Of a DNA stretch of 30,567 nt, positions 7,054 to 24,092 are shown one piece after another. Position 1 is the stretch's first letter. Each line of letters starts with the position of its first letter. Source of the DNA: Candidatus Ventricola intestinavium. Its GTDB lineage: Bacteria > Bacillota > Clostridia > Christensenellales > Aristaeellaceae. The stretch is from assembly GCA_018715105.1 (NCBI GenBank), contig DVMG01000198.1, forward strand, positions 1-30,567, read 5' to 3'. The position numbers were made by a program, and so were the translations under genes. The notes below the pieces were generated by a model, which was not told where the DNA came from, searched no databases, and saw only the letters and a list, made by a program, of their open reading frames with translations.

Positions 7054-8367
7054 ATGAGAAAAATAGTCATCGCGGGCGCGGGGGCATATCATTTTGCCCC
7101 CGCCATTTTAGAGGATCTCTTTGTCCGTTACCGCATGCCGGTGGAAATCTGGCTCGTGGATGCGGATTTGGATATGGCGGAGCTCACCGCACGCGGCGCG
7201 CAGGCGCTGGCGCGCGCATTCGGCGTGCAGGCGCAGTTTTACTATACCACGCAGCTGCATAAGGCGATCTTTTCTTCCGATGCGGTGGTCCTCTGCTCGG
7301 ATTTTCTGGATGAAGAGGCCTGGCAAAAGGATTATGAGGCGCTCAGCAGCGTGGGCCTGGGCAAGCAGGTTCGCCTGACGGGCGGCCTCGGCGGGGCCAT
7401 GCAGACACTGCGGGCCGTAGGCTTTATTGCGGATGTGGCCGATCAAATGCACCAGGAATGCCCGGATGCCACGCTCATCCTGTGCGACAGCGGTTTCGGC
7501 GGCCTTCCGCTCTCCCGCGCGTGCGAAGCGGCGCAGTGCCATTGCGGCATCCGCACGCTGGGCGTCAGCGGGGTCGCCGAGCAGACGAGGCATCGCCTGG
7601 CGCTCTATCTGAATGTCCGAGAGGAGAACCTGCTCATCCGCTGTGCGGGGCTCAACGGCTTTTCCTGGGTTGCTCAGCTGAGGGACACGCAAAAAGGCGT
7701 GGATCTCCTTCCCCGCTGCATGCAGGAAATGCGCGAGGACAGCCGTGAACAGCTCAGCGCTCAATATATCGACTGGTATGGCGCCATCCCTGCGGGCACG
7801 CGTGTGACGCAGTATGAGCTGCTCGCCGATACGGACCTGAGCCCGCGCCGCACGGTGTTTCCCCTCTCCGGAGTGGGGGCGGCCGATTATGAGCTGCGCA
7901 AGCGCAATCTGGCGCTTTTAACGGTGCACGGCCCCATGCGCCCGCAGGGGCTCAAGGCCTGGGGACAGATCCGCACAAGCGGCCTTGCCTCGGCGCGGCC
8001 CATTGAAATCCTGCGTGCGCTGTGGGGCGAAGGGGAATGCCGGGTGGAGAGCCTCACCATGCCGTGCGACGGCGCGCTTGCCAGCGTGACCCCCGGACGC
8101 TTTGTGGAAGTTCCCGCGCAGGTGGATGCGCAGGGAGCGCAGGGATATGCCGTCACGCTGCCGGTGGAGCTGGAAGAGCTCATGGAGCAGTTGAGCCTGT
8201 GCAACCGGCTCTATGCCGAGGCGGCTGTCCGGGGCAGCCGCAAGGCTCTGCGCGAAGCGCTTGAAATCGATCCGGCGCTCACGGGCGTCGATCTGCTTTA
8301 TGCCGAGGAAGTGCTCGGCCAAATGATGGAGGGCCAGCAGGAAAAGCTTCCCCGCTTTTTTGCCTGA
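7054..8367 (+). CDS. GH4-family-like Rossmann protein lacking the catalytic and metal residues
   Basis: KIVIAGAG, LVDAD, GGLGGAMQTLR, CAGLN, VEVPA and EAAVRGSRKALREALEIDP match the GH4 layout; NP, CH and NH motifs absent. Confidence 0.8.
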   Translation: MRKIVIAGAGAYHFAPAILEDLFVRYRMPVEIWLVDADLDMAELTARGAQALARAFGVQAQFYYTTQLHKAIFSSDAVVLCSDFLDEEAWQKDYEALSSVGLGKQVRLTGGLGGAMQTLRAVGFIADVADQMHQECPDATLILCDSGFGGLPLSRACEAAQCHCGIRTLGVSGVAEQTRHRLALYLNVREENLLIRCAGLNGFSWVAQLRDTQKGVDLLPRCMQEMREDSREQLSAQYIDWYGAIPAGTRVTQYELLADTDLSPRRTVFPLSGVGAADYELRKRNLALLTVHGPMRPQGLKAWGQIRTSGLASARPIEILRALWGEGECRVESLTMPCDGALASVTPGRFVEVPAQVDAQGAQGYAVTLPVELEELMEQLSLCNRLYAEAAVRGSRKALREALEIDPALTGVDLLYAEEVLGQMMEGQQEKLPRFFA

Positions 8368-8391
8368 TCCCCAACGAATGGAGGAGCCCCT

Positions 8392-8928
8392 GTGATCACA
8401 TACAGACCGCTTTTGCCCGCGGAGATCACCCCTTCGCTGTTTTCCCGTTTTATCCGCCGCCAGGAAGGGACCCACTGCCTGCGCCGTGATGCGAACGGCA
8501 TGTGGCAGACTGTATTTTCCCCCTTTATCGACGATTGGAGCGCACAGGATGTTGCGTTTTTGTGCGACTGCCTGCGGCGCACGCTCGCATCCGGCGGGTT
8601 TGTGGCGGGCGCTTTGGATGAGGAGGGGTTTGTCAAGGGCTTTGTCTGTGTGCGGGCAGAGCCGCTTGGCCCATCCGGAGAATATCTGGATCTGGCAAGC
8701 CTCCACGTTTCAAAGGAGATGCGCGGCCTTGGCATGGGCCGCGCGCTTTTTGAAGAGGCAAAGCGCTTCGCCCGCTCACGCGGGGCAAAAAAACTCTATA
8801 TTTCCGCTCATTCCGCCGTGGAAAGCCAGGCTTTTTACGCCGCCATGGGCTGTGTGGATGCCTGCATGATTCAGGAAGAGCATGCGCAGCGCGAGCCGTA
8901 TGACCGCCAAATGGAATGCATGCTGTAA
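8392..8928 (+). CDS. GNAT family N-acetyltransferase
   Basis: Motif A LHVSKEMRGLGMGRALF; SQAFYAAMG; GGAGG RBS with GTG start. Confidence 0.9.
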   Translation: MITYRPLLPAEITPSLFSRFIRRQEGTHCLRRDANGMWQTVFSPFIDDWSAQDVAFLCDCLRRTLASGGFVAGALDEEGFVKGFVCVRAEPLGPSGEYLDLASLHVSKEMRGLGMGRALFEEAKRFARSRGAKKLYISAHSAVESQAFYAAMGCVDACMIQEEHAQREPYDRQMECML

Positions 8929-9193
8929 ACGCGGCCCCGGACGCATCCCAAAAGGGGCTGTCTGATGAATCCTGAACATGCCAAGAAGCAACTTTTCGGG
9001 GAATCATGGGTTTTTTTGAGTTTGGGGCTCTGCCCAACGCCCCGCCAAAGGATTTTCCGATCGCCCTTTGGAAACCTTCGGGCGCAAATTCTTCGTTTTT
9101 GCTTGAAGTTTTTGCTTGGAATGTCTGAATGCTTAGCCTGCCCCCAACCGGCAGGCCGCGGGTTGGATTCCGTGCCCTTTTTTCCGCCGGCCC

Positions 9194-9222
9194 TTGACAG
9201 GCCGCGCCCGTCATGCTATGGT
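9194..9222 (+). promoter_or_regulatory. Sigma-A promoter of the MBOAT-SGNH unit
   Basis: TTGACA-17 nt-TATGGT with extended -10 TGn. Confidence 0.7.
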
Positions 9223-9353
9223 GTTGTCTTGGAATTTATATCCGATAGCCGGACGGCTGGCAGGCATTCCCTTCCGCCGTTTTCACCCCCTTTAACCGGG
9301 CGCATATTACCGGTTGGCGGGAGCTTTTCCTGCCAATAGAAAGAGGAAATCCC

Positions 9354-10946
9354 ATGTCGCTTTTCACCCTCGTGTTTTTTTCCTTTCTGTGCGCGGGGTT
9401 CTATTACCTGTGCCCGCTGCGTTTTCGCCCCGCTGTGCTGCTGCTGGTCAGCTATGCGTTTTATGCCTATCACGGCCTGAATGCGCTTCCCTTCATCCTG
9501 GTCACGACGGCCAGCACCTATCTGGGCGCGCTGGCCATCGGCCGCCTGGGAGAAAGCAGCAGGGCGTATCTGCGCGAGCACAGGGACACCCTGAGCGCCG
9601 CGGAAAAAAAGGCGCGCAAACAGCGCGTGCGTGCCCGCCAGCGCATGCTCTTTTTGTTGACGCTTCTGCTCAATTTCGGCATCCTGGCCGCACTCAAGTA
9701 TCTGGAGCCGCTGCTGGGCCTGGGGGCCGCTCTGGCAGGCGCGGTCACCGGCAGGGAACCGGCGCCGCCGGCGCTTGATCTGCTTTTGCCGCTGGGCATC
9801 TCCTTTTACACCTTCCAGTCCATGGGATACCTGATCGACGTATACAACGGCAAATATGCCGCCGAAAAGAATCCCGCGCGCTTTGCGCTCTATGTTTCCT
9901 TTTTCCCCCAGCTGATCCAGGGGCCGATCGGCCGCTATGATCAGCTGGGGCCGCAACTTGCGTCCGGCCATCGCTTTGATTTTGAGGAGATCAAGCGCGG
10001 CGCGCTGCTGATGCTCTGGGGCTTTTTCAAAAAGAAGGTCATCGCCGACCGCGCTCTGCCGCTGGTGGAAGAGGTCTTTGCCAATCAGAGCGCATACGGC
10101 GGAGCCGTGATCGTCATCGGCGTGCTGTTTTATTCCCTGCAGCAGTATACGGATTTTTCAGGCGGCATCGATCTGGTCACAGGCGTTGCGCAGCTGTTCG
10201 GCATTCGCCTTGCTCCCAATTTCAGGCGGCCGTATTTCTCGGTTTCCCTGGGCGAATTCTGGCGGCGCTGGCATATCAGCCTGGGCAGCTGGATGCGGGA
10301 CTACGTCTTTTATCCCTTTGCGCTCACCCGGCCCATGAATCGCCTGAGCAAGATGCTCAAAAAGCGCGTGGGCACACACATGGCCCGCGCCCTGCCCGCG
10401 GCGCTTGGCAACATTCTGGTCTTTTTCCTGGTGGGCATCTGGCATGGCGCGCAGATGAACTATGTGCTCTGGGGTCTTTATAACGGCGTGATTCTGGCAT
10501 GCACCGCTCTGGCGGATCCCCTCTATAAGCGCGCCTGCGAGCGCCTGCCCCGCCTCACGGCATCCCGCGGCTTTTATGTGTTCCGCGTGTTGCGCACATT
10601 TCTGATCGTCAACATCGGCTGGTATTTTGACCGCTGTGTGCGGGCGGGCGATGCGTTTGCCATGCTGGGCAAAACCCTGTTTGACCCGCGGCTTTCCCAG
10701 CTTTCGGACGGCACGCTCCTGTGCCTGGGCCTCAAGCCGGGGGACTATGCCGTGCTGCTGGCGGCGACGCTTCTTCTCTTTGCCGTCTCCCTTCTTCAGG
10801 AGGCGGGCGTCAGGGTTCGCGATGCCGTGCTTTCCCGCCCGCTCGCGCTTCGCTGGGCGCTGATCTATGCCCTGCTTCTTTTCACCCTCTGGACATTTTC
10901 CGGAAGCAGTTCCGGCACAGGCGGCTTTATGTACGCGGTATTCTGA
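9354..10946 (+). CDS. MBOAT family O-acyltransferase (AlgI/PatA/DltB-like)
   Basis: LPLGISFYTFQ, FFPQLIQGPI, DFSG, NFRRPYFS..EFWRRWHISL, catalytic GIWHG; many TM segments; ends FMYAVF. Confidence 0.96.
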   Translation: MSLFTLVFFSFLCAGFYYLCPLRFRPAVLLLVSYAFYAYHGLNALPFILVTTASTYLGALAIGRLGESSRAYLREHRDTLSAAEKKARKQRVRARQRMLFLLTLLLNFGILAALKYLEPLLGLGAALAGAVTGREPAPPALDLLLPLGISFYTFQSMGYLIDVYNGKYAAEKNPARFALYVSFFPQLIQGPIGRYDQLGPQLASGHRFDFEEIKRGALLMLWGFFKKKVIADRALPLVEEVFANQSAYGGAVIVIGVLFYSLQQYTDFSGGIDLVTGVAQLFGIRLAPNFRRPYFSVSLGEFWRRWHISLGSWMRDYVFYPFALTRPMNRLSKMLKKRVGTHMARALPAALGNILVFFLVGIWHGAQMNYVLWGLYNGVILACTALADPLYKRACERLPRLTASRGFYVFRVLRTFLIVNIGWYFDRCVRAGDAFAMLGKTLFDPRLSQLSDGTLLCLGLKPGDYAVLLAATLLLFAVSLLQEAGVRVRDAVLSRPLALRWALIYALLLFTLWTFSGSSSGTGGFMYAVF

Positions 10947-11035
10947 TGGGCGGAGTTCCCGCGGCATGTCCGCGGGACAGGCGCCTTTGCATGCTGCCCC
11001 GCCCCGATTTTTCTACCTTCGCAGGAGGCATATCC

Positions 11036-12466
11036 GTGAAAACCTTTTTTCGCGCGCTGGCCGGATGCGCCGCATTCGCCGCTCTATTCGCTTTGATCGT
11101 GCTGCTGGCCAACACATATCTGATTCAGACGGACACCATTACCGCTCTGACGCTTCGGGAGATGCAGGCGCGCGAGGATATCGAGCTGGCCTTTGTCGGC
11201 TCATCCGTCGTGCGCGACCACTTCAACGTGCAGCTCATCACCGAAAAGACGGGGCTGACCGCCTTTAACGTGACCGTGCCCTGTGCATCCATGCCGGCGA
11301 ACATCGCCCTGACCAAAGAGCTCTACCGCACCAACAGCCCGCAATGGGTGGTTCTGGTGGTGGAGCCGTATACCTTTCAAACCCCGCGCGAAGATACTGA
11401 GGCCGAATATAAGCTCATGCCCTTCCTGTCGGATTGGAAAAACCGGCTTGAATATTACCTGCGCCTGTGCGATGAGGACGGCTATTATCTCGACCGCCTG
11501 TTCATCTTCCGGGAGTTTGGCGTCAAATCCCTTCGGGATATCGCCAAAACCGTGGGGCTGCGCCACTGGCCGGAAGAAACCTATGCCTTACTTCAGCCGA
11601 GCATGGATCCCACCGTTTCCTACCAGGGCAGCGGCTTTCTGCGGCATACCACCGATGAGCGCGCCGACGACCTTGTGCGCAAATCGGTCTTCCGTGAATA
11701 TACCGGCTACTATTATGAGCTGTTTGACAAATCCAAGGCCGAGCTGCTTGAATACAAGGCCCTTTGCGAGTCCCACGGCTCCAATCTGCTGATCCTGCTC
11801 TCCCCCAATCTGGCCGCACACGCGCTGGCCGAGCCCGGTTTCCTTGAATATGGTGAGAGCCTGATGCGCTTTTGCCGGGACAACGGCATCGCCTGCTTTA
11901 ATTTTCTCTTCGCCCGCCCCGAATTCATGCCCAGCCTGGATGGATATTATTTCGACCTTTACCACATGGTGGGGGAGGGGGCGGACATTCTGAGCGACGC
12001 ATTTTGCCGCTTCTTCCGCCTGTATACGTCCGGGGAAGACGTAACCTCCCTGTTTTACGAAAACTCGGCCGCGTATCTTGAGTCCATCGACGAGATCACC
12101 AACGCCTGGGTGACGCAGTATGATTCCTCCTGCGCGTGGAACCTCGCCTGGGATCAGGACGAAGCCGCTGTCACCGCCGCCGCGCAGACGCAGGATGTCT
12201 TCATGGCGGACTGCAACCGCGGCACCCTGGTCACGCCGGAATACCGCTTTGTGCGGGTCGAGCCGGACGGCTCGGAGACAATCCTTCAGGATTACAGCAC
12301 CGAAACCCTGTATCTGTGCGCCCCCGGCGAGCTCGACGGACAGACGCTCCGGCTCTACGCCCGCCCGCAGGGGCAGGAAGACGCTCAGCCGGATTGGTTT
12401 GAGCTGACCGTCGGGGAAACCTCCTGCGCCACGCCGGGCGCTCTTGCGCATTCCTCTTCCTCCTGA
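11036..12466 (+). CDS. Membrane-anchored extracellular SGNH/DltD/AlgJ-like acyltransferase
   Basis: GTG start after AGGAGG; N-terminal TM segment; FVGSS nucleophile motif; DLYH (DxxH) motif; directly downstream of the MBOAT gene. Confidence 0.75.
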   Translation: MKTFFRALAGCAAFAALFALIVLLANTYLIQTDTITALTLREMQAREDIELAFVGSSVVRDHFNVQLITEKTGLTAFNVTVPCASMPANIALTKELYRTNSPQWVVLVVEPYTFQTPREDTEAEYKLMPFLSDWKNRLEYYLRLCDEDGYYLDRLFIFREFGVKSLRDIAKTVGLRHWPEETYALLQPSMDPTVSYQGSGFLRHTTDERADDLVRKSVFREYTGYYYELFDKSKAELLEYKALCESHGSNLLILLSPNLAAHALAEPGFLEYGESLMRFCRDNGIACFNFLFARPEFMPSLDGYYFDLYHMVGEGADILSDAFCRFFRLYTSGEDVTSLFYENSAAYLESIDEITNAWVTQYDSSCAWNLAWDQDEAAVTAAAQTQDVFMADCNRGTLVTPEYRFVRVEPDGSETILQDYSTETLYLCAPGELDGQTLRLYARPQGQEDAQPDWFELTVGETSCATPGALAHSSSS

Positions 12467-12596
12467 AACGGGAAGGGAGGAGCCTCCCGTCTTGTGCGCA
12501 TGCAATTTCGGTTTTCAAAAAGCGGTTCTCTTTTGACCGGCATGGGCGTCTTCCCGCCTCCCTGAGAGGAGGAAACAGGCCTTTCCCGGCCGTTTG

Positions 12597-12635
12597 AAGC
12601 CGCCTTTTCCAAATCGGAGAAGGCGGCTTTTTCTT
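12597..12635 (+). terminator. Intrinsic terminator after the SGNH-like gene
   Basis: AAGCCGCCTTTTCC/GGAGAAGGCGGCTT stem followed by a T-tract. Confidence 0.7.
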
Positions 12636-12709
12636 TGCCTTTTCCGCAAAGCGTTTGTGCGGCTCCTTCTTTGCCGCTCCTTCTTTGCGGATTCGCCTGG
12701 CGGCAAGCC

Positions 12710-12738
12710 TTGATTGCCGGCCCGAAATCGCGTATAAT
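12710..12738 (+). promoter_or_regulatory. Sigma-A promoter of the A-domain/decarboxylase/carrier unit
   Basis: TTGATT-17 nt-TATAAT. Confidence 0.75.
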
Positions 12739-12819
12739 AAGGGAGATCTCCCTGAAAAGGGAATCCATGCCTGCGCCGCTTCAGGCACAGGCTTCATTTT
12801 CATCGGGACGGAGTCTTTC

Positions 12820-14367
12820 ATGAAATACCTGATTCTGGATTATCTGGAGGCAACGGCCTCCCGCCTGCCCGAGAAGACGGCGTTTGCCGATGAGCATACG
12901 AGCGTCACATTCGGGCAGTTGGTTCATCGCGCCCGCGCAGTGGGCAGCGCGCTTTTGCCGCTCGTCTCTCCGCGCAGCGTCGTTGGCTTTTATATGGACA
13001 AGTCCGTCCACACGGTCACAGGCTTTATGGGCGCGGTCTATGCGGGTTGCGCATATGCGCAGCTCAATCTGCGCCATCCGCCCGCCCGCATCCGCGCCAT
13101 TCTGGATACGCTTGCAACGCCCGTCGTGGTGACGGACAGGGAGCACGCTCCCGCCCTGAAGCAGACGGGCTTTTCCGGGCGCATTCTGCTCCTGGAGGAG
13201 CTTCTTTCCTCGGCGGCGGATGAGCCGGGCCTTTTATCCGTTCGCCGCAAGATGATTGACACGGATCCCCTTTATGTCAATTTCACCAGCGGGAGCACGG
13301 GAGCGCCCAAAGGCGTGGTTGTCTGCCACCGCAATGTGACCGACTTTATCCCCTGCTTTACCTCCCTTTTTTCCATCACAGAACAGGACACGCTGGCCAA
13401 TCAGGCCCCGTTTGACTTTGATGTGTCGGTGAAGGATCTCTACAGCGGCCTTTTTACGGGCGCGACCGTGCAGATTGTGCCCACGGCCTTTTTCTCCCAG
13501 CCTACAAAGCTCATGGATTTCCTCTGTGAACGCCGGGCTACCGTGCTCGTGTGGGCGGTCAGCGCGCTTTGCTTCCTGACGACGATGAATGCCCTGGCGT
13601 ACAAGACGCCCCAGACGCTGCGCGCCATCCTCTTCTCCGGCGAGGTGATGCCCGTCAAGCACCTGAATAAGCTGAAAAAATACCTGCCCCATGTTCAGTA
13701 TGTCAACCTTTACGGCCCCACGGAGATCACATGCAACTGCACCTATTACATCGTGGATCGCGACTTTTCCGAGCATGAGACGCTGCCCATCGGCGTCCCC
13801 TTCCCCAACGAGCGCGTCCTTTTGCTGGGCGAGGATGGGCATGAAGTGACGGCGCCGGGCGAAACGGGCGAGCTCTGCGTCAGCGGCACGGCCGTCGCGC
13901 TGGGATATTACCGGGATCCGGAGCGCACGGCGGCCAGTTTTGTTCAAAATCCGCTTTCATCCGATCGGTATCGCGATATCCTCTATCGCACCGGCGACCT
14001 CGTCCGCATCAACGAGCGGGGCGAAATGGTCTATGTGTCCCGAAAAGATTTTCAGATCAAGCACATGGGCCACCGCATTGAGCTGGGCGAAATCGAGGCG
14101 CATCTCGGCGCCGTGCCCGGCGTAGAGCGCGCGCTGTGCGTCTATCTGCACGAAAAAGGGAAGATCCTCGCTTTTACCACCGGCCCGGCGGACCGGCAGA
14201 CCATCACCGCCGCGCTGCGCGAAACGCTGCCGGCCTACATGATCCCCAACCTGTTCATGCGGGTGGAGGAAATGCCGCTCAACAAAAACGGCAAGATCGA
14301 CCGGGCCCGGCTCATGGAGCGCTATCAGGCACAAAAGGAGGCACGCCATGGAAACCGCACCGCTTGA
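12820..14367 (+). CDS. Stand-alone amino acid adenylation enzyme (DltA-like, carrier-protein ligase)
   Basis: YVNFTSGSTGAPKGV, FDFDVSV, FSGE, NLYGPTE, YRTGDL, RKDFQIKHMGHRIELGEIE, NKNGKIDR. Confidence 0.95.
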   Translation: MKYLILDYLEATASRLPEKTAFADEHTSVTFGQLVHRARAVGSALLPLVSPRSVVGFYMDKSVHTVTGFMGAVYAGCAYAQLNLRHPPARIRAILDTLATPVVVTDREHAPALKQTGFSGRILLLEELLSSAADEPGLLSVRRKMIDTDPLYVNFTSGSTGAPKGVVVCHRNVTDFIPCFTSLFSITEQDTLANQAPFDFDVSVKDLYSGLFTGATVQIVPTAFFSQPTKLMDFLCERRATVLVWAVSALCFLTTMNALAYKTPQTLRAILFSGEVMPVKHLNKLKKYLPHVQYVNLYGPTEITCNCTYYIVDRDFSEHETLPIGVPFPNERVLLLGEDGHEVTAPGETGELCVSGTAVALGYYRDPERTAASFVQNPLSSDRYRDILYRTGDLVRINERGEMVYVSRKDFQIKHMGHRIELGEIEAHLGAVPGVERALCVYLHEKGKILAFTTGPADRQTITAALRETLPAYMIPNLFMRVEEMPLNKNGKIDRARLMERYQAQKEARHGNRTA

Positions 14368-15532
14368 GGCCATTGTGAAGGCATACGGCACCCCCTGCTT
14401 TGTCTTTGATGAGGCCGCGCTCGCCCGGCGCATGCACGCCGTGCGCGAAATCGTGGGGGAGCGCATGCGCCTGTGTTACTCCGTCAAGGCCAATCCGTTT
14501 CTGATCCCCGCCATGTGCGGCCTGGTGGAAACGCTTGAGGTCTGCAGTCCCGGGGAGCTGGAAATCTGCATGGCGCTTGGCGTCCGGCCGGACGCCATTC
14601 TCTTCTCCGGGGTCAACAAGACCTGGCGGGATGTGGAGCGTGCCATGGACGCGGGGATCACCCGGTTCACGTGCGAATCCCCGCTGCATGTGCGCCTGAT
14701 TGACGAAGCGGCGCAAAGCCGCGGGCGCGTCTATCCGGTGCTGCTGCGGCTGACGGCGGGCTCCCAGTTCGGCATGGACGAGGCCGATCTGCTGGCCGCT
14801 GTTGCAAACCGGTCTGGCACGCCCGGCATCCGCATCGAGGGAATCCACTTCTTTTCCGGCACCCAGCGCAAAAAACTCGACAGCCAGCGCGGGGAGCTCG
14901 CCCTGCTGCGGAACTTCTGCACGCGCCTGAGAGAGGAATACGGCTTTGAGGCGCTGCGCGTGGAATACGGGCCCGGCCTGTATTTTCCCTACTTCGCCCA
15001 TGAAGATGACCGCGATACGCTCGCCCCGCTGCGCGAACTTGCGCCGGATCTGCGCGCGCTGGCTGAAACCTGTGAGCTGACCGTTGAAATGGGCCGCTTC
15101 TTTGTCTCGGAATGCGGCACCTATTTGACACAGGTTGTGGATACCAAGGTCAACTGCGGCACCGCTTACGCGATTGTGGACGGCGGCATCCACCATGTCA
15201 ATTATATCGGCGGCACCATGGGCATGCGTGTGCCGCGCATCACCCATCTTGCCGGTCCGGCGCATGTGCGGGACGATGCGCAGGACTGGACGCTCTGCGG
15301 GAGCCTGTGCACCACGGCGGATGTGCTTGTGCGCCGCGTGAGCCTGCATGGCCTCGTGCCGGGCGATATTCTGGCCTTCCGGAATATCGGCGCTTATGCC
15401 GTGACGGAGAGCCCCGCGCTCTTCCTGAGCCGGGATATGCCCCGCATCCTTTTAAGCGGCGCGGGCGGCGTCCGGCTTTGCCGCGACGCCCTTCCTACAT
15501 CCATACTCAATCAACCGAAAAAGGAGATCTGA
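14348..15532 (+). CDS. Fold-III PLP-dependent decarboxylase (DAP/Orn decarboxylase family)
   Basis: TPCFVFD, YSVKANP (PLP Lys), HFFSGTQ, EMGRFFV, GSLCTTAD, GAY; overlaps the A-domain stop. Confidence 0.88.
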   Translation: METAPLEAIVKAYGTPCFVFDEAALARRMHAVREIVGERMRLCYSVKANPFLIPAMCGLVETLEVCSPGELEICMALGVRPDAILFSGVNKTWRDVERAMDAGITRFTCESPLHVRLIDEAAQSRGRVYPVLLRLTAGSQFGMDEADLLAAVANRSGTPGIRIEGIHFFSGTQRKKLDSQRGELALLRNFCTRLREEYGFEALRVEYGPGLYFPYFAHEDDRDTLAPLRELAPDLRALAETCELTVEMGRFFVSECGTYLTQVVDTKVNCGTAYAIVDGGIHHVNYIGGTMGMRVPRITHLAGPAHVRDDAQDWTLCGSLCTTADVLVRRVSLHGLVPGDILAFRNIGAYAVTESPALFLSRDMPRILLSGAGGVRLCRDALPTSILNQPKKEI

Positions 15533-15534
15533 TC

Positions 15535-15765
15535 ATGAAAGAAACCATCCTGAGCATTCTTGCCGACATCGTGGAGGAGGAGAATCTGGCCACCTGTACC
15601 ACGCTGATCGACGACGGCATCCTTTCCTCGCTGGATATCATCCAGCTCATCGGCGCGCTTAACGACGAATTCGATCTCTCCATCCCCGCCACCGAAATCG
15701 TGCCGGATAATTTCAACAGCGTGGACGCCATGGCGCGCATGGTTGCGCGCCTGACGGAGGAATAA
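15535..15765 (+). CDS. Acyl/aminoacyl carrier protein (DltC-like)
   Basis: 76 aa, acidic; GILSSLDII with Ppant Ser32; PDNFNSV tail; starts 2 bp after the decarboxylase stop. Confidence 0.92.
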   Translation: MKETILSILADIVEEENLATCTTLIDDGILSSLDIIQLIGALNDEFDLSIPATEIVPDNFNSVDAMARMVARLTEE

Positions 15766-15818: not shown

Positions 15819-15862
15819 AAAAGGCCGCCTTCTCTCCCCAAGCGGAGGAAGACGGCCTTTTT
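15819..15862. terminator. Probable bidirectional terminator between the carrier gene and the PHP gene
   Basis: AAAAGGCCGCCTTC/GAAGACGGCCTTTT stem with A and T flanks. Confidence 0.7.
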
Positions 15863-16123
15863 CTCTTTGCTTTTCCAGGCGGCGTCCCGCACGCGCAATT
15901 TCCAGCGCTCTTCCCTGTTTTATACGGTTCTCCGATAAAAACGAGCAGCCGGCGCGAAGCGAAGACGGGGTTGGGGGCTAAAGTTCCCAGGCAGGTTGGG
16001 GCGACAGCCCAACGTTTTTCCTCATCGAAGCACAATATGCAAGCATCGCACAGGTGCCGAAGGCGGCCCCTGCGCTTCCGACAGCGCAGCTTTCAAAAGC
16101 TTTCCATGAAACGGAGAACCGCA

Positions 16124-16951
16124 TTACAGCCCAACCGGCACGAAGGTCTTCTTTCCACCCTGCTCCTCAAGCTGCCAGATCTCCCGAAAACCGCATGCAA
16201 GCGCAAGCGCTCGCGCCTGCTCAAAGCCGAAGGCCACGGCTTCCACCCCGTGCGCATCCGCGCTCACCGTCACCCTGCCGCCCATTCGCGCAATCTCCCG
16301 CAGCAGCGCCCGGGAAGGATAGGGCGTGGTGCGCCATCCGCGGCTGATTGCGCCGGTATTGATCTCAAAGATCTTTTCCTCCGCCACAAGCGCCTCCAGC
16401 GCGCGCAGCGCTGCCCTTCTGTAAGCCGGGCTGTTCTCATCAAAGAAACCGTGCCGCTCGTTAAACTTGGTGATCAGGTCCACATGTCCCACCACATCGA
16501 CCTCCGGCACACGGGCAAGGCGTTCCACCTGCTCATAATACAGGCCTGCGGCCGCGTTGGCATCGCCGCCAAAATACAGGCGCAAAATCCTCTGCGTCGC
16601 CTGAGGGGATTCATCCACCGCGAAAAAGCCGCCGTCCGCGGGCAGATGGTGCACCGAGCCGATCACATAGTCAAAGGCGGATCGATCCACAGGCTCGCAG
16701 AGCACATCCCACTCGACACCCGCATACACACGAATTTCGCCGGCATACGCCTCCCGCAGCCGGCGCATTTCACGAAGAAACGAGGGGATCTCCTCCCGGC
16801 GGGCCGCCCACGGCGTTTCAAAAGGCAGCGGGCCGTGCAGGCTGAGCCCCACGCTCGTCAGCCCTGCCGCCTGAGAGGCCCGCACCATTTCCTCCGGCGT
16901 GTTCTTTCCATCATCAAATGTACAGTGCGCGTGCAGGTTCTGCGCGACCAT
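16124..16951 (-). CDS. PHP-family phosphatase (HisJ/HisK histidinol-phosphatase-like)
   Basis: NLHAHCTFDDG, DYVIGSVH, GHVDL, FEINTG, SADAH; GGAGG RBS before ATG 16951. Confidence 0.88.
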   Translation of the reverse strand: MVAQNLHAHCTFDDGKNTPEEMVRASQAAGLTSVGLSLHGPLPFETPWAARREEIPSFLREMRRLREAYAGEIRVYAGVEWDVLCEPVDRSAFDYVIGSVHHLPADGGFFAVDESPQATQRILRLYFGGDANAAAGLYYEQVERLARVPEVDVVGHVDLITKFNERHGFFDENSPAYRRAALRALEALVAEEKIFEINTGAISRGWRTTPYPSRALLREIARMGGRVTVSADAHGVEAVAFGFEQARALALACGFREIWQLEEQGGKKTFVPVGL

Positions 16952-16974
16952 GCTCGTCCTCCCGCTCTTCAAGA

Positions 16975-17274
16975 TCAGCGCGCGTCCTCCTCGTTCTGAA
17001 GGCGATTCAAAACCATGCGATAGCCGCCCGGCCCATAGTCAAGGCACCGCTTCACCCGGCCGATGGTGGCCGAACTCACTCCCGTGGCCTCCGCCACCTG
17101 CTGATAAGAACTCCCGGCATCCAGCTGCCGGGCAATCTCAAGGCGTTGTCCGAAGTCGCGCACCTCTTTGTTGGTGCACAGATCCTCAAAATAGCGATAG
17201 CATTCCTCCACGCTCTCAAGCGCCAGGATCGAACGGAAGAGTGTGTCGGTCTGTTCGTCTCTTCTTAAGCTCAT
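16975..17274 (-). CDS. yerC: YerC/YecD TrpR-like transcriptional regulator
   Basis: EECYRYFEDLCT, QRLEIA, TGVSSATIGRVKRCLDYG; GAGGTG RBS. Confidence 0.92.
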   Translation of the reverse strand: MSLRRDEQTDTLFRSILALESVEECYRYFEDLCTNKEVRDFGQRLEIARQLDAGSSYQQVAEATGVSSATIGRVKRCLDYGPGGYRMVLNRLQNEEDAR

Positions 17275-17304
17275 CGTGCTCACCTCAACGCGTTTCATAA
17301 GGTA

Positions 17305-17333
17305 ATCATATCATGGCTTGTATCGAAAAGCAA
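17305..17333 (-). promoter_or_regulatory. Sigma-A promoter of yerC-PHP
   Basis: TTGCTT-17 nt-TATGAT with extended -10. Confidence 0.6.
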
Positions 17334-17406
17334 GAGACCGCCTTCCTTTCCCCGGCCGAATTCCGCTTTGCCCGGGCGGCCGTGCAAGCCGAAAGGATGG
17401 GGGCGC

Positions 17407-17438
17407 AAAAGAAGGGCGGGAAAAATCCTTTCCCGCCC
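17407..17438 (-). terminator. Intrinsic terminator of gdhA
   Basis: GGGCGGGAAA/TTTCCCGCCC stem followed by TTCTTTT on the minus strand. Confidence 0.8.
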
Positions 17439-17450
17439 CGTCATCAAGCC

Positions 17451-18864
<1,414 letters not shown>

Positions 18865-19013
18865 GTGTTTTTTGATGTTTCTTCGATTTCTACTTTTATC
18901 ACACGTTAAATACAGTCGATTTGCATAATCGAATTCCATCTCTCCCGTAATCGACAATTTTCTCCCCAGCAGGCGTGGCTTCCTCTTTTTCTGCGCGCTC
19001 TCCGCCCTGGATG

Positions 19014-20447
19014 TCATGCCTTCAGCGCGCGCATCAGCGCCTCCCGAATGCGCTTGGGATCCGGCTTGCCCTGGAAGGCTTTCATGGCCTGGCCGATGAG
19101 GAAGCCGAGCGCCTTCTCGTTTCCCGCGCGATAGGCATCCGCATCGTTCCGGCAGCGGCTGAGCACCTCTTCAACCGCCTTGCGATAGACGCCGTCCTCC
19201 TGAACCGTTTCAAGCCCGTGTGCCCTCACATAGCCCTCGATATCCTCCCCGCCCTGAAAAGCATAGGCAAACGCCTCCCGCGCGCTCTGGCGGCTGACGC
19301 GCCCTTCCGCCACCATCGCCACGAGGGTGCCCAGCGCTTCACCGGTGATTTCAAGTGCTTCCGGCATCACCTGTCTCTCCTTCATCATGGCCATCATCTC
19401 GCCCATGATCCAGCCTGCCGTCTCCCTCGGATGCCCGCACACGGCAACGGCGCGCTCAAACAGATCTGCCACGGGCTTTTCCGCGGTGATCTGATTCGCC
19501 TCATACTCACTCAGGGCAAACGTCTGCTGATAGCGCTGTGCCTTCGCCTGCGCGAGCTCCGGCTGGCGGTCCCGAACCTGGGCCAGCCACGCTTCCGAAA
19601 TCTCAACCGGCGGCAGATCGGGTTCCGGAAAATAGCGGTAATCCTGCGCGTTTTCCTTGGAGCGCATGGCAAAGGAGGTGCCTTTGTTGTCGTCCCATCG
19701 CCGTGTCTGCTGGAGGACGCGCCCGCCGTCCTGGATACATTCCACCTGCCGGCGGAATTCGCCCTCGATGGCCCTTGCGATGGCCTTAAAACTGTTCAGG
19801 TTTTTCATCTCCGTGCGGGTGCCCAGCTCTTTTTGACCGGCCGGGCGCACGGAAAGATTCACATCCGCGCGCAGAGAACCTTCCTGCATCCGGCAATCGG
19901 ACACGCCGATGTACTGCAGCGTCTGGCGCAGCGTTGTCAGATAGGCGATGGCTTCCTCTGCAGAGCGCATATCCGGCTCGGAGACGATTTCAAGGAGCGG
20001 CACGCCGCAGCGGTTGTAATCCACCAGCGTCTTATCAAGCCAGGGATCGTGCAGAAGCTTGCCGGCATCCTCTTCCATATGAATTTCATGGATGCCGATC
20101 TCCTTTTCCCCCGCCGCGGTGCGGATGTGCACATGCCCGTTTCGGCAGATGGGCAGATACAGCTGGCTGACCTGATACGCTTTGGGCAGATCCGGATAAA
20201 AGTAATTCTTCCGGTCAAACTTGCTCACGCGCGTGATCGCACAGTTTGTCGCCAGCCCGGCAGCCATGGCAAATTCCACCACGCGCCGGTTGAGCACGGG
20301 GAGCGTGCCGGGCATGCCCGTGCAAATCGGGCACGTGTGCGTGTTGGGCACGCCTCCAAAGCGCGTCGTGCATCCGCAGAAGATCTTGGTGCGGGTTGAA
20401 AGCTCCACGTGCACCTCCAGCCCGATGACCATCTCATACGCCGCCAT
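19014..20447 (-). CDS. gatB: Asp-tRNA(Asn)/Glu-tRNA(Gln) amidotransferase subunit B
   Basis: IGLEVHVEL, RKNYFYPDLPK, HMEEDAGK, EGSLRADVN, YRYFPEPDL. Confidence 0.98.
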   Translation of the reverse strand: MAAYEMVIGLEVHVELSTRTKIFCGCTTRFGGVPNTHTCPICTGMPGTLPVLNRRVVEFAMAAGLATNCAITRVSKFDRKNYFYPDLPKAYQVSQLYLPICRNGHVHIRTAAGEKEIGIHEIHMEEDAGKLLHDPWLDKTLVDYNRCGVPLLEIVSEPDMRSAEEAIAYLTTLRQTLQYIGVSDCRMQEGSLRADVNLSVRPAGQKELGTRTEMKNLNSFKAIARAIEGEFRRQVECIQDGGRVLQQTRRWDDNKGTSFAMRSKENAQDYRYFPEPDLPPVEISEAWLAQVRDRQPELAQAKAQRYQQTFALSEYEANQITAEKPVADLFERAVAVCGHPRETAGWIMGEMMAMMKERQVMPEALEITGEALGTLVAMVAEGRVSRQSAREAFAYAFQGGEDIEGYVRAHGLETVQEDGVYRKAVEEVLSRCRNDADAYRAGNEKALGFLIGQAMKAFQGKPDPKRIREALMRALKA

Positions 20448-20449
20448 GT

Positions 20450-21928
20450 TCAGGCCTCCTTCCCTTGCCCGCACAGGGGCCGCTGCCTGTGCCAGGACGT
20501 GTGCTGCTGATAAGCATGCGCGCAGTTCAGGAGCGCCTGCTCGCCAAACGCCCGGCCGATCAGCTGCGCGCCCACCGGCAGGCCCTCTGCGTCAAAGCCG
20601 CAGGGCATCACAAGCCCCGGCAGGCCGGCCATGTTGACCGACACGGTGTAGATGTCCCCCAGGTACATGCGGATTGGATCCTCTGCGTGAAAGCCGAGGG
20701 GATACGCCGTTGTGGGCGCGGCGGGCGTCAAAAGCACATCCGCCTGCTCAAAGCAGGCGTCAAAGCCGCGCTTGATGAGCGTCCGGACCTGCAGGGCCTT
20801 TTTGTAATAGGCATCATAATAGCCGGAGGAAAGCGCAAACGCGCCCAGCATGATCCGCCGCCTGACCTCGGCCCCAAAGCCTTCGCTGCGCGCGGCCACA
20901 TACAGGTCATGCAGCCCCTGCGTGTTCTTCGGCCGGAAGCCAAGCTTCACACCGTCATACCGGGAGAGATTGCTGGATGCCTCCGCGCAGGCCAGCACGT
21001 AATAAGCCGGCACGGCATACGCAAGCACCGGCATGCGCACGGGCACAAGCCGCGCGCCCAGCCCCTCCAGCACATGCGCCGCCTCCATCACGCGCGCGCG
21101 TACCTCCTGCTGAAGCCCCTCGCCGAAATAATCCTCCGGAATGCCCACGCGAAGGCCGTCGAGCGCATCCCCCCGCGGCACGCCGGGCGCAGGCGCATCC
21201 ACGCTGGTGCTGTCAAGCGCATCCCTCCCCATGATTGCGGCCGTCACCGCCGCGGCATCCGCCGCGTCAAGGGCAATCGGGCCAATCTGATCCAGGGAGG
21301 AGGCATAGGCCAGCAGGCCAAAGCGTGAAACCGCTCCATACGTGGGCTTGATGCCCGTCACCCCGCAGAAGGAGGCCGGCTGGCGGATGGATCCCCCCGT
21401 ATCGCTGCCCAGCGCGTAAAAGACCTCCCGCGCCGCGACGGCCGCCGCCGAGCCGCCCGACGAGCCGCCCGGCACGCGGGCGGGATCCCACGGGTTGCGC
21501 GTCGCGCCGAAAAAGGAGGATTCCGTGGAAGACCCCATGGCGAATTCATCCATGTTCGTCTTCCCCAGGCAGACCGCGCCGATCGCCTCCAGCTTTTTCA
21601 CCGCCGTGGCGTCAAACACCGGCACATATTCGCTGAGCATCTTCGAGGCGCACGTCGTGCGCACGCCTTTTGTGGAGAACACGTCCTTGACCGCCATGGG
21701 CACGCCCGCCAGCGGATGGGTGAGCTCGCCGCTGTCGATGCGCCGCTGCACATCCCGCGCCCGCTCAAGCGCCGCCTCCGGCGTGACGGTGACAAACGCA
21801 TGGAGGACGCCCTCAAGCGCTTCCATGCGTGAAAGGCAGGCGCGCACCGCTTCCTCCACCCGGATCTGGCGGCTTTGTATCTTCGCGCCCAGTTCAAGCG
21901 CGGACAGGTCCAGCAGGTTCATCGTCAT
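20450..21928 (-). CDS. gatA: Amidotransferase subunit A
   Basis: Amidase signature GKTNMDEFAMGSS, PGGSSGGS, SDTGGSIRQPA; EASSNLSRYDG. Confidence 0.98.
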   Translation of the reverse strand: MTMNLLDLSALELGAKIQSRQIRVEEAVRACLSRMEALEGVLHAFVTVTPEAALERARDVQRRIDSGELTHPLAGVPMAVKDVFSTKGVRTTCASKMLSEYVPVFDATAVKKLEAIGAVCLGKTNMDEFAMGSSTESSFFGATRNPWDPARVPGGSSGGSAAAVAAREVFYALGSDTGGSIRQPASFCGVTGIKPTYGAVSRFGLLAYASSLDQIGPIALDAADAAAVTAAIMGRDALDSTSVDAPAPGVPRGDALDGLRVGIPEDYFGEGLQQEVRARVMEAAHVLEGLGARLVPVRMPVLAYAVPAYYVLACAEASSNLSRYDGVKLGFRPKNTQGLHDLYVAARSEGFGAEVRRRIMLGAFALSSGYYDAYYKKALQVRTLIKRGFDACFEQADVLLTPAAPTTAYPLGFHAEDPIRMYLGDIYTVSVNMAGLPGLVMPCGFDAEGLPVGAQLIGRAFGEQALLNCAHAYQQHTSWHRQRPLCGQGKEA

Positions 21929-21969
21929 TCCTCCTTTACAGGGCTGCTTTTACAGGGCTGCCTGCCGCC

Positions 21970-22257
21970 TCATTCCACGGTTCTTGGCACGACAAAGCAT
22001 CCATCCTTCTTTTCCGGCGCGTTTTTGAGAATCGCCTCGCGGTCCATGCTCTCGCGAACCTCATCCTCACGAAACACGTTTTTGACCGGGAAGACGTGGC
22101 TCATCGGTTCCACGCCTTCGGTATCGATTTCCGCCAGCTGATCGACATAGCCGATCATCCGCGCCAGATCGTCCCTGGCTTTCGCTCGCTGCGCATCATC
22201 CAGTTTCAGGTGCGCCAGCTCCGCCACATAGGCGATCAGGCCATCGGTAATCTCCAT
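21970..22257 (-). CDS. gatC: Amidotransferase subunit C
   Basis: AELAHL, DTEGVEP, FREDEV, FVVPRTVE; directly upstream of gatA. Confidence 0.96.
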   Translation of the reverse strand: MEITDGLIAYVAELAHLKLDDAQRAKARDDLARMIGYVDQLAEIDTEGVEPMSHVFPVKNVFREDEVRESMDREAILKNAPEKKDGCFVVPRTVE

Positions 22258-22302
22258 GGCTCCTCCTCCTTTTCTTTTTCGCGTGTTCTTTCACGATTCG
22301 TC

Positions 22303-23616
22303 TCAGGGGTCGAGGCGCTGCTGGTCACGCGGGAACAGGCAGGCCATCCGCACGTTGTCAAGCCCCAGCAGGCGCGCGGTAAACCGCTCAAGCCCCATTC
22401 CCAGGCCCCCATGCGGGCAGGTGCCGCAGCGGTGAAGGGTCAGATATCCGGCAAAATCCTCCGGATTCATGCCCCTTCTCTTCATCTTGTCGACCTGCTC
22501 CCTGTAATCGTGAATGCGCTGCCCGCCGGTTGTGACCTCCATGCCGCGGAAGAGCAGATCGAAGGAGAGCGTATACCGGGGATCCTGCGGGTCATCGGCC
22601 GCGTAAAACGGGCGCTTTCTGCTGGGATAGTGCGTGACAAACACAAACTCACTGCCGGATTCCTCTTCAAACAGCCGGGAAATAAGCTGCTCTTCTTCCG
22701 GCTCCAAATCAAACGGATCGCGGATCGGGCGGTGATACCGCTCGCTCACCCGCTGCTTCGCCTCGTCAAAACGCACGGCGGGGATGGAGGAAACCTGCGG
22801 CAGCTTCACCCCCAGCAGATCCAGCTGCGGCGCATAATCGCTTTCAAGCACCTGTATGATGCGCTGAAGCACCGCCGCTTCCATCTGCATCACGTCCTCA
22901 AAGCCGTCGATAAAGCCCATCTCGAAATCCAGGGAGGTGTATTCATTGAGGTGTCGGGGTGTGTTGTGCTTTTCCGCCCGGAATACCGGCCCCACCTCAA
23001 ACACGCGCTCATACACCGGCACCATCGCCTGCTTATAAAACTGCGGGCTCTGTGCCAGATAGGCGCGGCGTCCGAAGTATTCCATCCGGAAGAGGTTGGC
23101 TCCTCCTTCCGCGTTTTGCGCGACGATTTTGGGGGAATGGATCTCGGTGAAGCCCTCTTCCAGCAGCGCCTGGCGAAAACCGCGCACAACGCCTTCCTGA
23201 ATTTTAAAGACGGCGCGTTTTCTCAGGTTGCGCAGCGTCACAAACCGCAGCGACAGATCGCTTGAAAGTGAAAGGTTCATCCGGTTTTTGCCGATGGGCA
23301 CGGGCAGGGCCCCCGCCGCGCGCGCGAGCACCTGAACGCTCTGCACGTGCAGCTCCGCGCCGCCGGGCGCACGCCCGTCCCGCCGGACGCATCCTTCCAC
23401 CTTCACCGCATCCGCCTCGCGCACATCCGCCTCCCGGTCGGTCAGCACGCATTGCAAAACGCCCTGCGGCATGCGCAGCAGCATGAAGCGCACATCCCCC
23501 AGATCGCGCAGCGTATGCACGATGCCATGCACATGCGCGCAGGCCCCTTCCTGCATGGCAAGCACATCCGAGCGCGTGTGTTCGCCTTTTTTGATCTCTC
23601 CGGTTATGGTCTTCAT
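22303..23616 (-). CDS. aspS: Non-discriminating aspartate--tRNA(Asp/Asn) ligase, archaeal-type short form
   Basis: RAPGGAE anticodon-loop Pro, LAQSPQFYKQ, FRAEKH, GMEVTTGGQR, PHGGLGMGLER; GGAGG RBS before ATG 23616; upstream of gatCAB. Confidence 0.95.
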   Translation of the reverse strand: MKTITGEIKKGEHTRSDVLAMQEGACAHVHGIVHTLRDLGDVRFMLLRMPQGVLQCVLTDREADVREADAVKVEGCVRRDGRAPGGAELHVQSVQVLARAAGALPVPIGKNRMNLSLSSDLSLRFVTLRNLRKRAVFKIQEGVVRGFRQALLEEGFTEIHSPKIVAQNAEGGANLFRMEYFGRRAYLAQSPQFYKQAMVPVYERVFEVGPVFRAEKHNTPRHLNEYTSLDFEMGFIDGFEDVMQMEAAVLQRIIQVLESDYAPQLDLLGVKLPQVSSIPAVRFDEAKQRVSERYHRPIRDPFDLEPEEEQLISRLFEEESGSEFVFVTHYPSRKRPFYAADDPQDPRYTLSFDLLFRGMEVTTGGQRIHDYREQVDKMKRRGMNPEDFAGYLTLHRCGTCPHGGLGMGLERFTARLLGLDNVRMACLFPRDQQRLDP

Positions 23617-23692
23617 CGCGATTCCTCCGATCTTTTCCCGCGGGGCGCCGTTTTGTGTCCGCATGCCTTCCGGTGCAAAATCGCCGGCCAAC

Positions 23693-23970
23693 AAAAAAAC
23701 GTCCCGAACACATGCTCGGGACGGGAACAAACACAATACCCCCGCGGTACCACCCAAGTTGCTGCCTGCGGCCATCACCCGGCAGCCTCTCGAACCCTTA
23801 ACGCGGGTGAAACGGATGCGTCTGGGCGCGGCAGGGGCCGCACGGTCGGCGCACCGGCTCCGGAGTGTTCTTTCGCCTGCGGGGTTTCTGCGCGCGGCTC
23901 TCAGTCCATGGCCGCGCCTCCCTGATCGAAAACGCAGGGTACTCGTCTCTTTCTCAGCCGTTTTGATTAT
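23693..23970 (-). ncRNA. T-box riboswitch with Asn (AAC) specifier controlling aspS-gatCAB
   Basis: AACTTGGGTGGTACCGCG at 23760-23743; terminator CGTCCCGAGCA/TGTTCGGGACG plus T-tract; specifier loop GAAAGAACA with AAC at 23869-23867. Confidence 0.92.
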
Positions 23971-23977
23971 GGTGAGC

Positions 23978-24006
23978 ATTATAGCGTCCGAAAATGCATC
24001 TGTCAA
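23978..24006 (-). promoter_or_regulatory. Consensus sigma-A promoter of the aspS leader
   Basis: TTGACA-17 nt-TATAAT. Confidence 0.9.
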
Positions 24007-24092
24007 GAGATTTCTCTCAAATTTCTTTCGATTTTCAAACAAACCGAAGAGAATCTGGATTTTTTCTTCTTTTTTCCGCCTTCTTTTTCGGT

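Follow-up and report, generated by a model that had tools for sequence, protein, structure and literature searches.

In Gram-positive bacteria, D-alanylation of teichoic acids is the textbook route to surface-charge tuning, cationic-peptide resistance, and host interaction, and the Dlt system behind it is, to our knowledge, the only MBOAT/SGNH pathway fed by a carrier protein that has been described. The Dlt system of the Firmicutes comprises a stand-alone adenylation enzyme (DltA), a small carrier (DltC), an MBOAT (DltB), a shuttle tyrosine within an FxYxxF motif on the microprotein DltX, and the membrane-anchored DltD-fold transferase DltD (mechanism: PMC12148441). The other MBOAT/SGNH pathways use acyl-CoA and no carrier protein; among them are PatA/PatB and AlgI/AlgJ/AlgX, in which FxYxxF is fused to the MBOAT's C-terminal end, a separate SGNH partner is encoded alongside, and acetyl-CoA is the donor, the tyrosine of the motif carrying D-alanine on DltX and acetyl on PatA (PMC12148441). 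Here, we analyze five genes in which MBOAT and SGNH components of this kind stand next to an adenylation enzyme, a carrier protein, and a pyridoxal phosphate (PLP)-dependent decarboxylase. They lie on a stretch of 30,567 nucleotides (the window), which is the whole of contig C24 (DVMG01000198.1) in the 2.18-Mb, 76%-complete metagenome-assembled genome of Candidatus Ventricola intestinavium, an uncultured chicken-gut Clostridia bacterium.

For the decarboxylase half of the locus, the closest described systems are of a different kind. In butirosin biosynthesis (BtrI/BtrJ/BtrK), a fold-type III PLP decarboxylase is likewise found with a stand-alone carrier, and BtrK acts on an acidic amino acid tethered to that carrier; the loader, BtrJ, is an ATP-grasp ligase and not an adenylation domain, and what BtrK makes is used in the cytoplasm for the side chain of an aminoglycoside, with no MBOAT as its recipient. 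In the vicenistatin (VinN/VinL/VinO) and fluvirucin (FlvN-type) pathways, an adenylation enzyme loads 3-methylaspartate or aspartate via the side-chain carboxyl onto a stand-alone carrier, and the PLP decarboxylase takes the tethered form only (PMC11284099). There, the product primes a polyketide synthase, and the adenylation enzyme of the window is not especially close to theirs. The same pairing of ligase and decarboxylase, in a surface-polysaccharide setting, is seen in the uncharacterized exosortase A-associated AMP ligase and PLP decarboxylase of Proteobacteria exopolysaccharide loci (TIGR03098/TIGR03099), whose models give 213.9 and 200.7 bits here against cut-offs of 592 and 478; the taxa are different, and the present locus has no exosortase context.

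Profile searches of the window's proteins against Pfam and NCBIfam, together with a predicted structure for the second protein, show that the five co-oriented genes that a first-pass annotation of this DNA had placed here are all present and intact on the forward strand:

9354..10946, + strand: MBOAT membrane acyltransferase, 530 aa (PF03062, 60 bits)
10926..10943, + strand: FxYxxF acyl-shuttle hexapeptide F-M-Y-A-V-F followed by the stop codon, at the MBOAT's C-terminal end (from the translation)
11036..12466, + strand: DltD-like SGNH transferase, 476 aa from the GTG at 11036 (AGGAGG at 11023-11028; predicted structure)
12820..14367, + strand: stand-alone amino-acid adenylation enzyme, 515 aa (AMP-binding, 219 bits; TIGR01733, 336.6 bits, above the cut-off)
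14348..15532, + strand: fold-type III PLP-dependent decarboxylase, 394 aa, BtrK-like (Orn_Arg_deC_N, PF02784, 66 bits, and Orn_DAP_Arg_deC, PF00278, 51 bits, both above the cut-offs)
15535..15765, + strand: carrier protein, 76 aa, with the phosphopantetheine-serine motif L-S-S-L-D (PF00550, PP-binding, 27.2 bits; cut-off 20.8)

These genes form a real, conserved, and apparently undescribed variant of Dlt/MBOAT-SGNH envelope acylation joined to what would be on-carrier tailoring of the BtrK/VinO type, and we found no published description of the five-gene set or of its surface chemistry in the literature. The locus has a counterpart for each element of the Dlt relay (loader, carrier, MBOAT, shuttle tyrosine, and DltD-fold transferase). 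Compared with Dlt, it has a PLP decarboxylase in addition, and its four other proteins all score below the Dlt equivalog cut-offs. The pocket of the adenylation enzyme contains Lys239, unlike the pattern of DltA; the MBOAT itself bears the shuttle motif, on two additional helices, in place of the DltX microprotein of Dlt; and a further beta-sandwich is found at the C terminus of the SGNH protein, which occurs in one to three copies in relatives. The first-pass annotation had read the locus as a dlt-like system with a built-in decarboxylation, and our results support this reading as far as genes, folds, and linkage are concerned, while the substrate, the activated carboxyl, and the acceptor are what we infer.

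In what we consider the probable course of events, with ample room for doubt, the amino acid would be decarboxylated on the carrier to a beta-alanyl- or gamma-aminobutyryl-like unit, which would then be exported to a surface polymer. Specifically, the adenylation enzyme would activate an acidic (dicarboxylic) amino acid in the cytoplasm, most likely via its side-chain carboxyl, and load it as a thioester onto the 76-aa carrier; since alpha-decarboxylation by a PLP enzyme requires that the alpha-amino acid end be free, another carboxyl would have to hold the substrate on its tether, as in BtrJ/BtrI/BtrK and VinN/VinL/VinO (PMC11284099). The BtrK-like enzyme would then strip the free alpha-carboxyl from the tethered substrate, giving an omega-aminoacyl thioester that would be beta-alanyl if the amino acid is aspartate and 4-aminobutyryl if it is glutamate. 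By analogy, the relation to BtrK would point to glutamate and the VinO/FlvN precedents to aspartate. The MBOAT would then move the acyl group from the carrier onto the tyrosine of its own FMYAVF motif, which would lie on the outer face of the membrane, and the membrane-anchored DltD-like protein would accept it on Ser87 and pass it to a hydroxyl of the surface polymer, probably a polysaccharide or a teichoic-acid-like polymer, to which it would add positive charge. If so, this would be a second carrier-fed pathway, with decarboxylation built in and a new type of cationic surface decoration as its outcome.

The identity of the PLP enzyme is central to this proposal. Its catalytic Lys47 and the HxxGxQ, EMGR, DGG, and CxxxD motifs are conserved, and Lys47, His167, Glu247, Asp278-Gly-Gly, Cys317/321, and Tyr350 are invariant in 22 orthologues. 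The best match in the PDB is BtrK, the L-glutamyl-[BtrI carrier protein] decarboxylase (128 bits, 3e-36, against 1e-25 for the best diaminopimelate decarboxylase), and a profile of the decarboxylase family gives the same order, with 169 bits for BtrK against 118. Among NCBIfam models, the highest score is to TIGR03099 (200.7 bits, cut-off 478.45), with the lysA model second. The first-pass annotation had named a plain lysA product as the identity that would speak against its reading. What we find is a score of 162.8 bits to TIGR01048 (LysA), below its cut-off of 297.9, BtrK as the closest relative, and a separate lysA-like gene on contig C202 of the same genome, which reaches 288.1 bits to TIGR01048 and is only 23% identical to the decarboxylase of the window. 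In two relatives the decarboxylase gene looks broken, being split into two overlapping tblastn pieces at L081:8574-9724 and interrupted by in-frame TGA and TAA stops at G150:C32:13727-14872; these are either pseudogenes or assembly errors.

The adenylation enzyme differs from DltA in both score and pocket. It gives 277.9 bits to TIGR01734 (cut-off 559.85) and 290 bits to NF003417 (cut-off 476), thus falling below both DltA models, and motif alignment places D235, V236, K239, L/M299, S301, L322, C330, N331, and K517 in its pocket, position 278 being uncertain. The resulting pattern, D-V-K...LSLCNK, is unlike that of DltA and does not bear out the D-alanine ligase held up by the first-pass annotation as a counter-indication. 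Position 239 is basic in both of the gene orders in which the system occurs (types 1 and 2, described below; the window is of type 1), with Lys in type 1 and Arg in type 2, and suggests that the substrate has a second carboxylate. The canonical amine-binding Asp235 is kept in type 1 and replaced by Ile in type 2; this replacement fits a substrate that would not be bound as an ordinary alpha-amino acid, and loss of the Asp is what one would expect of an amine that sits elsewhere than alpha to the carboxyl being activated. Domains of nonribosomal peptide synthetases (NRPS) that activate side-chain carboxyls of acidic amino acids, such as the aminoadipate module of ACV synthetase and the modules of microcystin synthetase for iso-linked glutamate and methylaspartate, carry Arg239. 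Reading the substrate from the relatives of the adenylation enzyme was tried and rejected: LgrA module 2, other NRPS domains, and DltA rank above the beta-aminoacyl-ACP synthetases among its PDB matches, and both subtypes best match LgrA module 2 and generic NRPS domains, matches that are uninformative as to specificity. As to the carrier, its phosphopantetheine serine is conserved in 79 orthologues, and DltC is its best NCBIfam model, with scores below the cut-offs (39.1 bits against 68 and 25.5 against 52.35; NF003464/TIGR01688). By tblastn, neither a canonical dlt operon nor a second adenylation or carrier gene was found in the 76%-complete assembly.

The core of the MBOAT, in which the WHG histidine is present, resembles DltB/AlgI, and two additional hydrophobic helices are found at the protein's C terminus. 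It scores 156.8 bits to the DltB model TIGR04091, below the cut-off of 375, and DltB structures are its only sequence matches in the PDB (3e-24). Across 60 orthologues linked to the adenylation, decarboxylase, and carrier genes (hereafter, the trio), the core motifs ISFYTF, WRRWH, and WHG are invariant. The proposal that an acyl-shuttle motif is fused to this protein is borne out by its last six residues, FMYAVF, directly before the stop, and nearly all complete trio-linked MBOATs end in F-[MLIV]-Y-x-x-F followed by a stop, the exceptions being L045, which ends in Y, and L052, in which the motif begins AMY. No separate DltX-like small open reading frame (ORF) with an FxYxxF ending was seen between the genes. 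In a maximum-likelihood tree of 62 rows, all linked MBOATs form one clade with a support of 100/100; this clade also takes in three more MBOATs that lie within 10 kb of a trio, and it leaves out the two other MBOATs of the window's genome (contig C81) and other unlinked paralogues. This linkage of a distinct MBOAT clade with an adenylation enzyme and a carrier sets the system apart from PatA/PatB and AlgI/AlgJ/AlgX, and it would make the carrier protein, not an acyl-CoA, the probable donor. At the level of gene context, the system contradicts the generalization that MBOAT/SGNH pathways other than Dlt are carrier-free (PMC12148441), and if our reading is right, fused-shuttle MBOATs would be able to draw their acyl groups either from acyl-CoA or from a carrier protein. 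On contig C81 (L007:4550-13026), the two further MBOAT genes are each followed by an unannotated protein of 363-393 aa; between the two pairs lies a VanY-type D-Ala-D-Ala carboxypeptidase that also has a peptidoglycan-binding domain, and fatty-acid synthesis genes adjoin.

The second protein gave no match to Pfam (the DltD model included), NCBIfam, or the sequences of the PDB, so that its assignment as an SGNH/DltD-like protein required structure prediction. Its reading frame is open from 10721 to 12466, with an alternative ATG at 10946; the GTG at 11036 is the most likely start, since it is preceded by AGGAGG at 11023-11028 and since, in the longer frame, the alignment with orthologues does not begin before about residue 32. 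The AlphaFold2 (AF2) model, built from an alignment of 38 sequences, has a mean predicted local distance difference test (pLDDT) score of 91.9 and a predicted template modeling (pTM) score of 0.88, its first 30 residues being of low confidence. It starts with a membrane helix at the N terminus, continues with an SGNH-type domain (residues ~59-365), and closes with a C-terminal beta-sandwich (~381-497). In a Foldseek search with this model, DltD structures take the top ten places (best E value 8e-7), and DltD also gives the longest structural alignment, with 260 residues (VIA Z 12.8) where generic SGNH hydrolases reach ~180, which agrees with the DltD-like nature that had been proposed for this gene. 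Numbered from 10946, Gly85 and Ser87 (Gly85-x-Ser87) and His340 are invariant in both gene orders and in 61 distant family members, and Asp337 is invariant within type 1. The model describes a protein that is predicted to be membrane-anchored and of DltD fold, with a putative catalytic serine and histidine. With 476 clusters at E ≤ 0.001 among 1.84 billion representatives, this is a small family, and Pfam matches among the 61 distant members are to Lipase_GDSL_2 (17/61), ALGX (3/61), and DltD (2/61). Tandem copies of the gene occur in many relatives, two in L012, L013, L015, L018-L020, L026, L027, L040, and L042 and three in L036 and L043; they are 36-58% identical to the window's copy, and several acceptor sites or polymers could lie behind them.

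How far these genes belong together can be judged from their distribution. A pattern scan with one genome per species returned 224 genomes with a relative of the decarboxylase, from which 80 loci of other species were fetched; the nearest of these, from Candidatus Ventricola gallistercoris, has proteins that are 76-82% identical to those of the five genes. In each of the 80 loci, the genes for adenylation enzyme, decarboxylase, and carrier stand next to one another, and the MBOAT gene stands beside this trio in most, so that the decarboxylase is conserved with its partners, as the first-pass annotation had required of its reading. Two gene orders can be distinguished. Type 1, the order of the window itself, runs MBOAT, DltD-like gene (one to three copies), adenylation enzyme, decarboxylase, and carrier and is found in Christensenellales, some Oscillospiraceae, Lachnospiraceae, Erysipelotrichaceae, and one Coriobacteriaceae genome. 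Type 2 runs adenylation enzyme, carrier, decarboxylase, MBOAT, and an SGNH-like protein of 346-427 aa, with gaps of ~10-70 nt, in Ruminococcus (including the complete genome of Ruminococcus sp. JL13D9), Acutalibacteraceae, and Coprococcus; its last protein is a remote homologue of the DltD-like protein (E 2e-8 around the serine motif). The flanking genes vary among loci. The system is patchy, with an orthologue at E ≤ 1e-60 in 7 of 398 other genomes from an even sample of the class, and its spread covers more than 200 species-level gut or rumen Bacillota genomes and at least one Coriobacteriaceae genome, with Ruminococcus sp. JL13D9 and Ruminococcus sp. zg-924 as cultured carriers.

Within the locus, the last three genes are packed as the first-pass annotation had described: the adenylation and decarboxylase genes share a 20-nt overlap, the carrier gene begins 2 nt past the decarboxylase stop, and good ribosome-binding sites precede both the decarboxylase and the carrier gene. 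This spacing suggests translational coupling, which we count in favor of a common function of adenylation, decarboxylation, and carrier. Between the DltD-like gene and the adenylation gene lies a spacer of 353 nt with signals of its own, listed here together with those at the two ends of the locus:

9194..9222, + strand: promoter-like site 5' of the MBOAT gene, TTGACA-17 nt-TATGGT, with TG (consensus match only)
12596..12640, + strand: intrinsic terminator-like hairpin with T-run in the spacer between the DltD-like and adenylation genes (hairpin 12596-12630, 15 pairs, 8 GC)
12710..12738, + strand: promoter-like site for the adenylation-decarboxylase-carrier unit, TTGATT-17 nt-TATAAT (consensus match only)
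15819..15868, + strand: terminator-like hairpin with T-run 3' of the carrier gene (-25.3 kcal/mol, z -3.3)

The hairpin at 12596-12630 is the strongest terminator-like hairpin of the region (-31.1 kcal/mol, z -5.24). Because it and a promoter-like site both fall within the spacer, the five genes are predicted to form two transcription units, MBOAT with DltD-like gene and adenylation enzyme with decarboxylase and carrier, and not one operon; of the single cluster described earlier, the adjacency of the genes thus stands and the single unit does not. No riboswitch or T-box that would name the amino acid was seen in the spacer, and Rfam gave no match at gathering thresholds across the window, the sole signal being a chance small RNA match (E 0.05) on the terminator hairpin. 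Three chicken-gut metatranscriptome runs contain short contigs that agree, without a mismatch, with portions of four genes (DltD-like, adenylation, decarboxylase, and carrier); these contigs lend weak support to transcription of the locus, since they are also compatible with DNA carry-over.

Several observations weigh against a carrier-bound decarboxylation that is followed by export. The combination of Asp235 and Lys239 seen in type 1 is also that of NRPS domains that activate the alpha-carboxyl of glutamate. Because at least one ordinary alpha-glutamate code thus has Lys as well, residue 239 argues for an acidic substrate and not for its orientation, and if the type 1 enzymes do load the alpha-carboxyl, the thioester would be alpha-linked and alpha-decarboxylation would be impossible. 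Of the 33 type 1 loci scanned, 18 have a hairpin similar to that of the spacer in the corresponding place, which points to separate transcription of the two halves, and in several loci (L038, L061, and L065) no MBOAT was found within 10 kb of the trio. As to the acceptor, a TagF-type gene was not found in the 76%-complete genome, in which the only trace of the sulfatase/LtaS superfamily is a gene fragment at a contig edge. Finally, MBOATs with a fused FxYxxF motif are known so far to use acetyl-CoA and not a carrier protein (PMC12148441).

Some of these points are shared by the view that the two halves are independent neighbors, in which the MBOAT/SGNH pair would O-acetylate a polymer from acetyl-CoA in the manner of PatA/PatB or AlgI/AlgJ and the trio would feed another, cytoplasmic acceptor. 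This view would account for the terminator-like hairpin and the promoter-like site between the halves, with similar hairpins in many relatives, for a fused motif typical of acetyl-CoA-using MBOATs (PMC12148441), and for those trios that lack an adjacent MBOAT, twice beside cytoplasmic sugar-nucleotide and LbH acyltransferase genes. We nevertheless consider it unlikely, given that the adjacency is kept in two gene orders, several Bacillota families, and one Coriobacteriaceae genome amid unrelated flanks, that the linked MBOATs form a clade of their own apart from unlinked paralogues of the same genomes, that the five genes of type 2 are tightly packed (~10-70 nt gaps), and that no other enzyme able to use the loaded carrier is encoded within the window. 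Rather improbable, too, is a PLP enzyme that converts a free amino acid into the substrate of the adenylation enzyme, for instance diaminopimelate into lysine, which would lead to lysylation of the polymer. The enzyme is indeed a member of the Orn/DAP/Arg decarboxylases, only one NCBIfam model outscores lysA on it, and public annotations name its orthologues diaminopimelate decarboxylase; yet it falls below the lysA cut-off in a genome that has a better lysA-like gene elsewhere, and BtrK is clearly its closest solved relative. Moreover, Lys or Arg at position 239 would be poorly suited to a cationic side chain, and most amines produced by decarboxylation have no carboxyl left to adenylate. Very unlikely, in our judgment, is other PLP chemistry on the tether, either epimerization of an alpha-linked L-aminoacyl group to D or beta-decarboxylation of alpha-linked aspartate to alanine, followed by export of the D-aminoacyl or alanyl group. 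It could draw on the canonical Asp235 of the type 1 adenylation enzymes, on a match of the N-terminal domain to Ala_racemase_N (34 bits), and on several public records that name orthologues alanine racemase. Against these stand the higher scores of the decarboxylase domain models, the presence of the C-terminal decarboxylase sheet domain, the fact that the best relatives are all decarboxylases with BtrK first, and the loss of Asp235 in type 2; for the alanine-forming variant, we also know of no beta-decarboxylation by a fold-III PLP enzyme.

If the carrier-bound product is exported after decarboxylation, as we favor, hints as to its acceptor come from two of the trios without an adjacent MBOAT. 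At L053:5643-14876, rml-type sugar-nucleotide genes lie upstream of such a trio and a Wzx-type flippase with two GT2 glycosyltransferases downstream; at L076:3332-11182, a hexapeptide-repeat acyltransferase lies directly upstream, beside a CapD-type dehydratase and a MurJ/Wzx-type flippase. Since both orphan trios thus sit inside polysaccharide gene clusters, they point to surface polysaccharide as the class of target and suggest that the trio is a portable donor module. A different arrangement is seen at L092:2339-10769, where a distant member of the DltD-like family (24% identity) follows directly 3' of an MBOAT gene, with an FkbH-like loader, a 79-aa PP-binding carrier, a MaoC dehydratase, a short-chain reductase, and a methyltransferase encoded upstream of the MBOAT and an LCP (LytR-CpsA-Psr) gene downstream. 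The arrangement has the look of another type of MBOAT/SGNH system for surface acylation that is fed by a carrier and handles an acyl group of its own. It is tempting to speculate, albeit tentatively and with the balance tilted against it, that MBOAT/DltD-like pairs belong to a broader class of carrier-fed surface acylation machines with exchangeable loading modules (the trio, or the FkbH set of L092), in which the trio also serves the acylation of cytoplasmic sugar nucleotides (L053 and L076). Gut anaerobes would then carry surface groups that are neither acetyl nor D-alanyl, such as beta-alanyl or 4-aminobutyryl esters, and that have never been seen chemically.

In one sub-lineage of nine genomes (L008:11565-17739; L012, L013, L015, L018-L020, L026, L027, and L030), a gene of the M18 aspartyl-aminopeptidase family begins ~10-20 nt past the carrier gene, with genes for 5-oxoprolinase subunits and a D-glutamate cyclase coming next. 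These neighbors may supply aspartate or glutamate and are a weak hint of an acidic amino acid; their linkage counts as a single event, as it is confined to a single lineage. In the window itself, the region upstream of the locus (7054-9339) encodes a GH4-family protein, a GNAT acetyltransferase, and a 124-aa ORF that has no match and is probably no gene, and no link between these and the acylation genes was seen. Downstream, at 16124-24042 on the - strand, convergent housekeeping genes encode a PHP-domain phosphatase, glutamate dehydrogenase, gatB, gatA, and an AspRS-type tRNA synthetase. The PHP-domain phosphatase adjoins the cluster in L008 and L009 as well, in the latter beside his genes.

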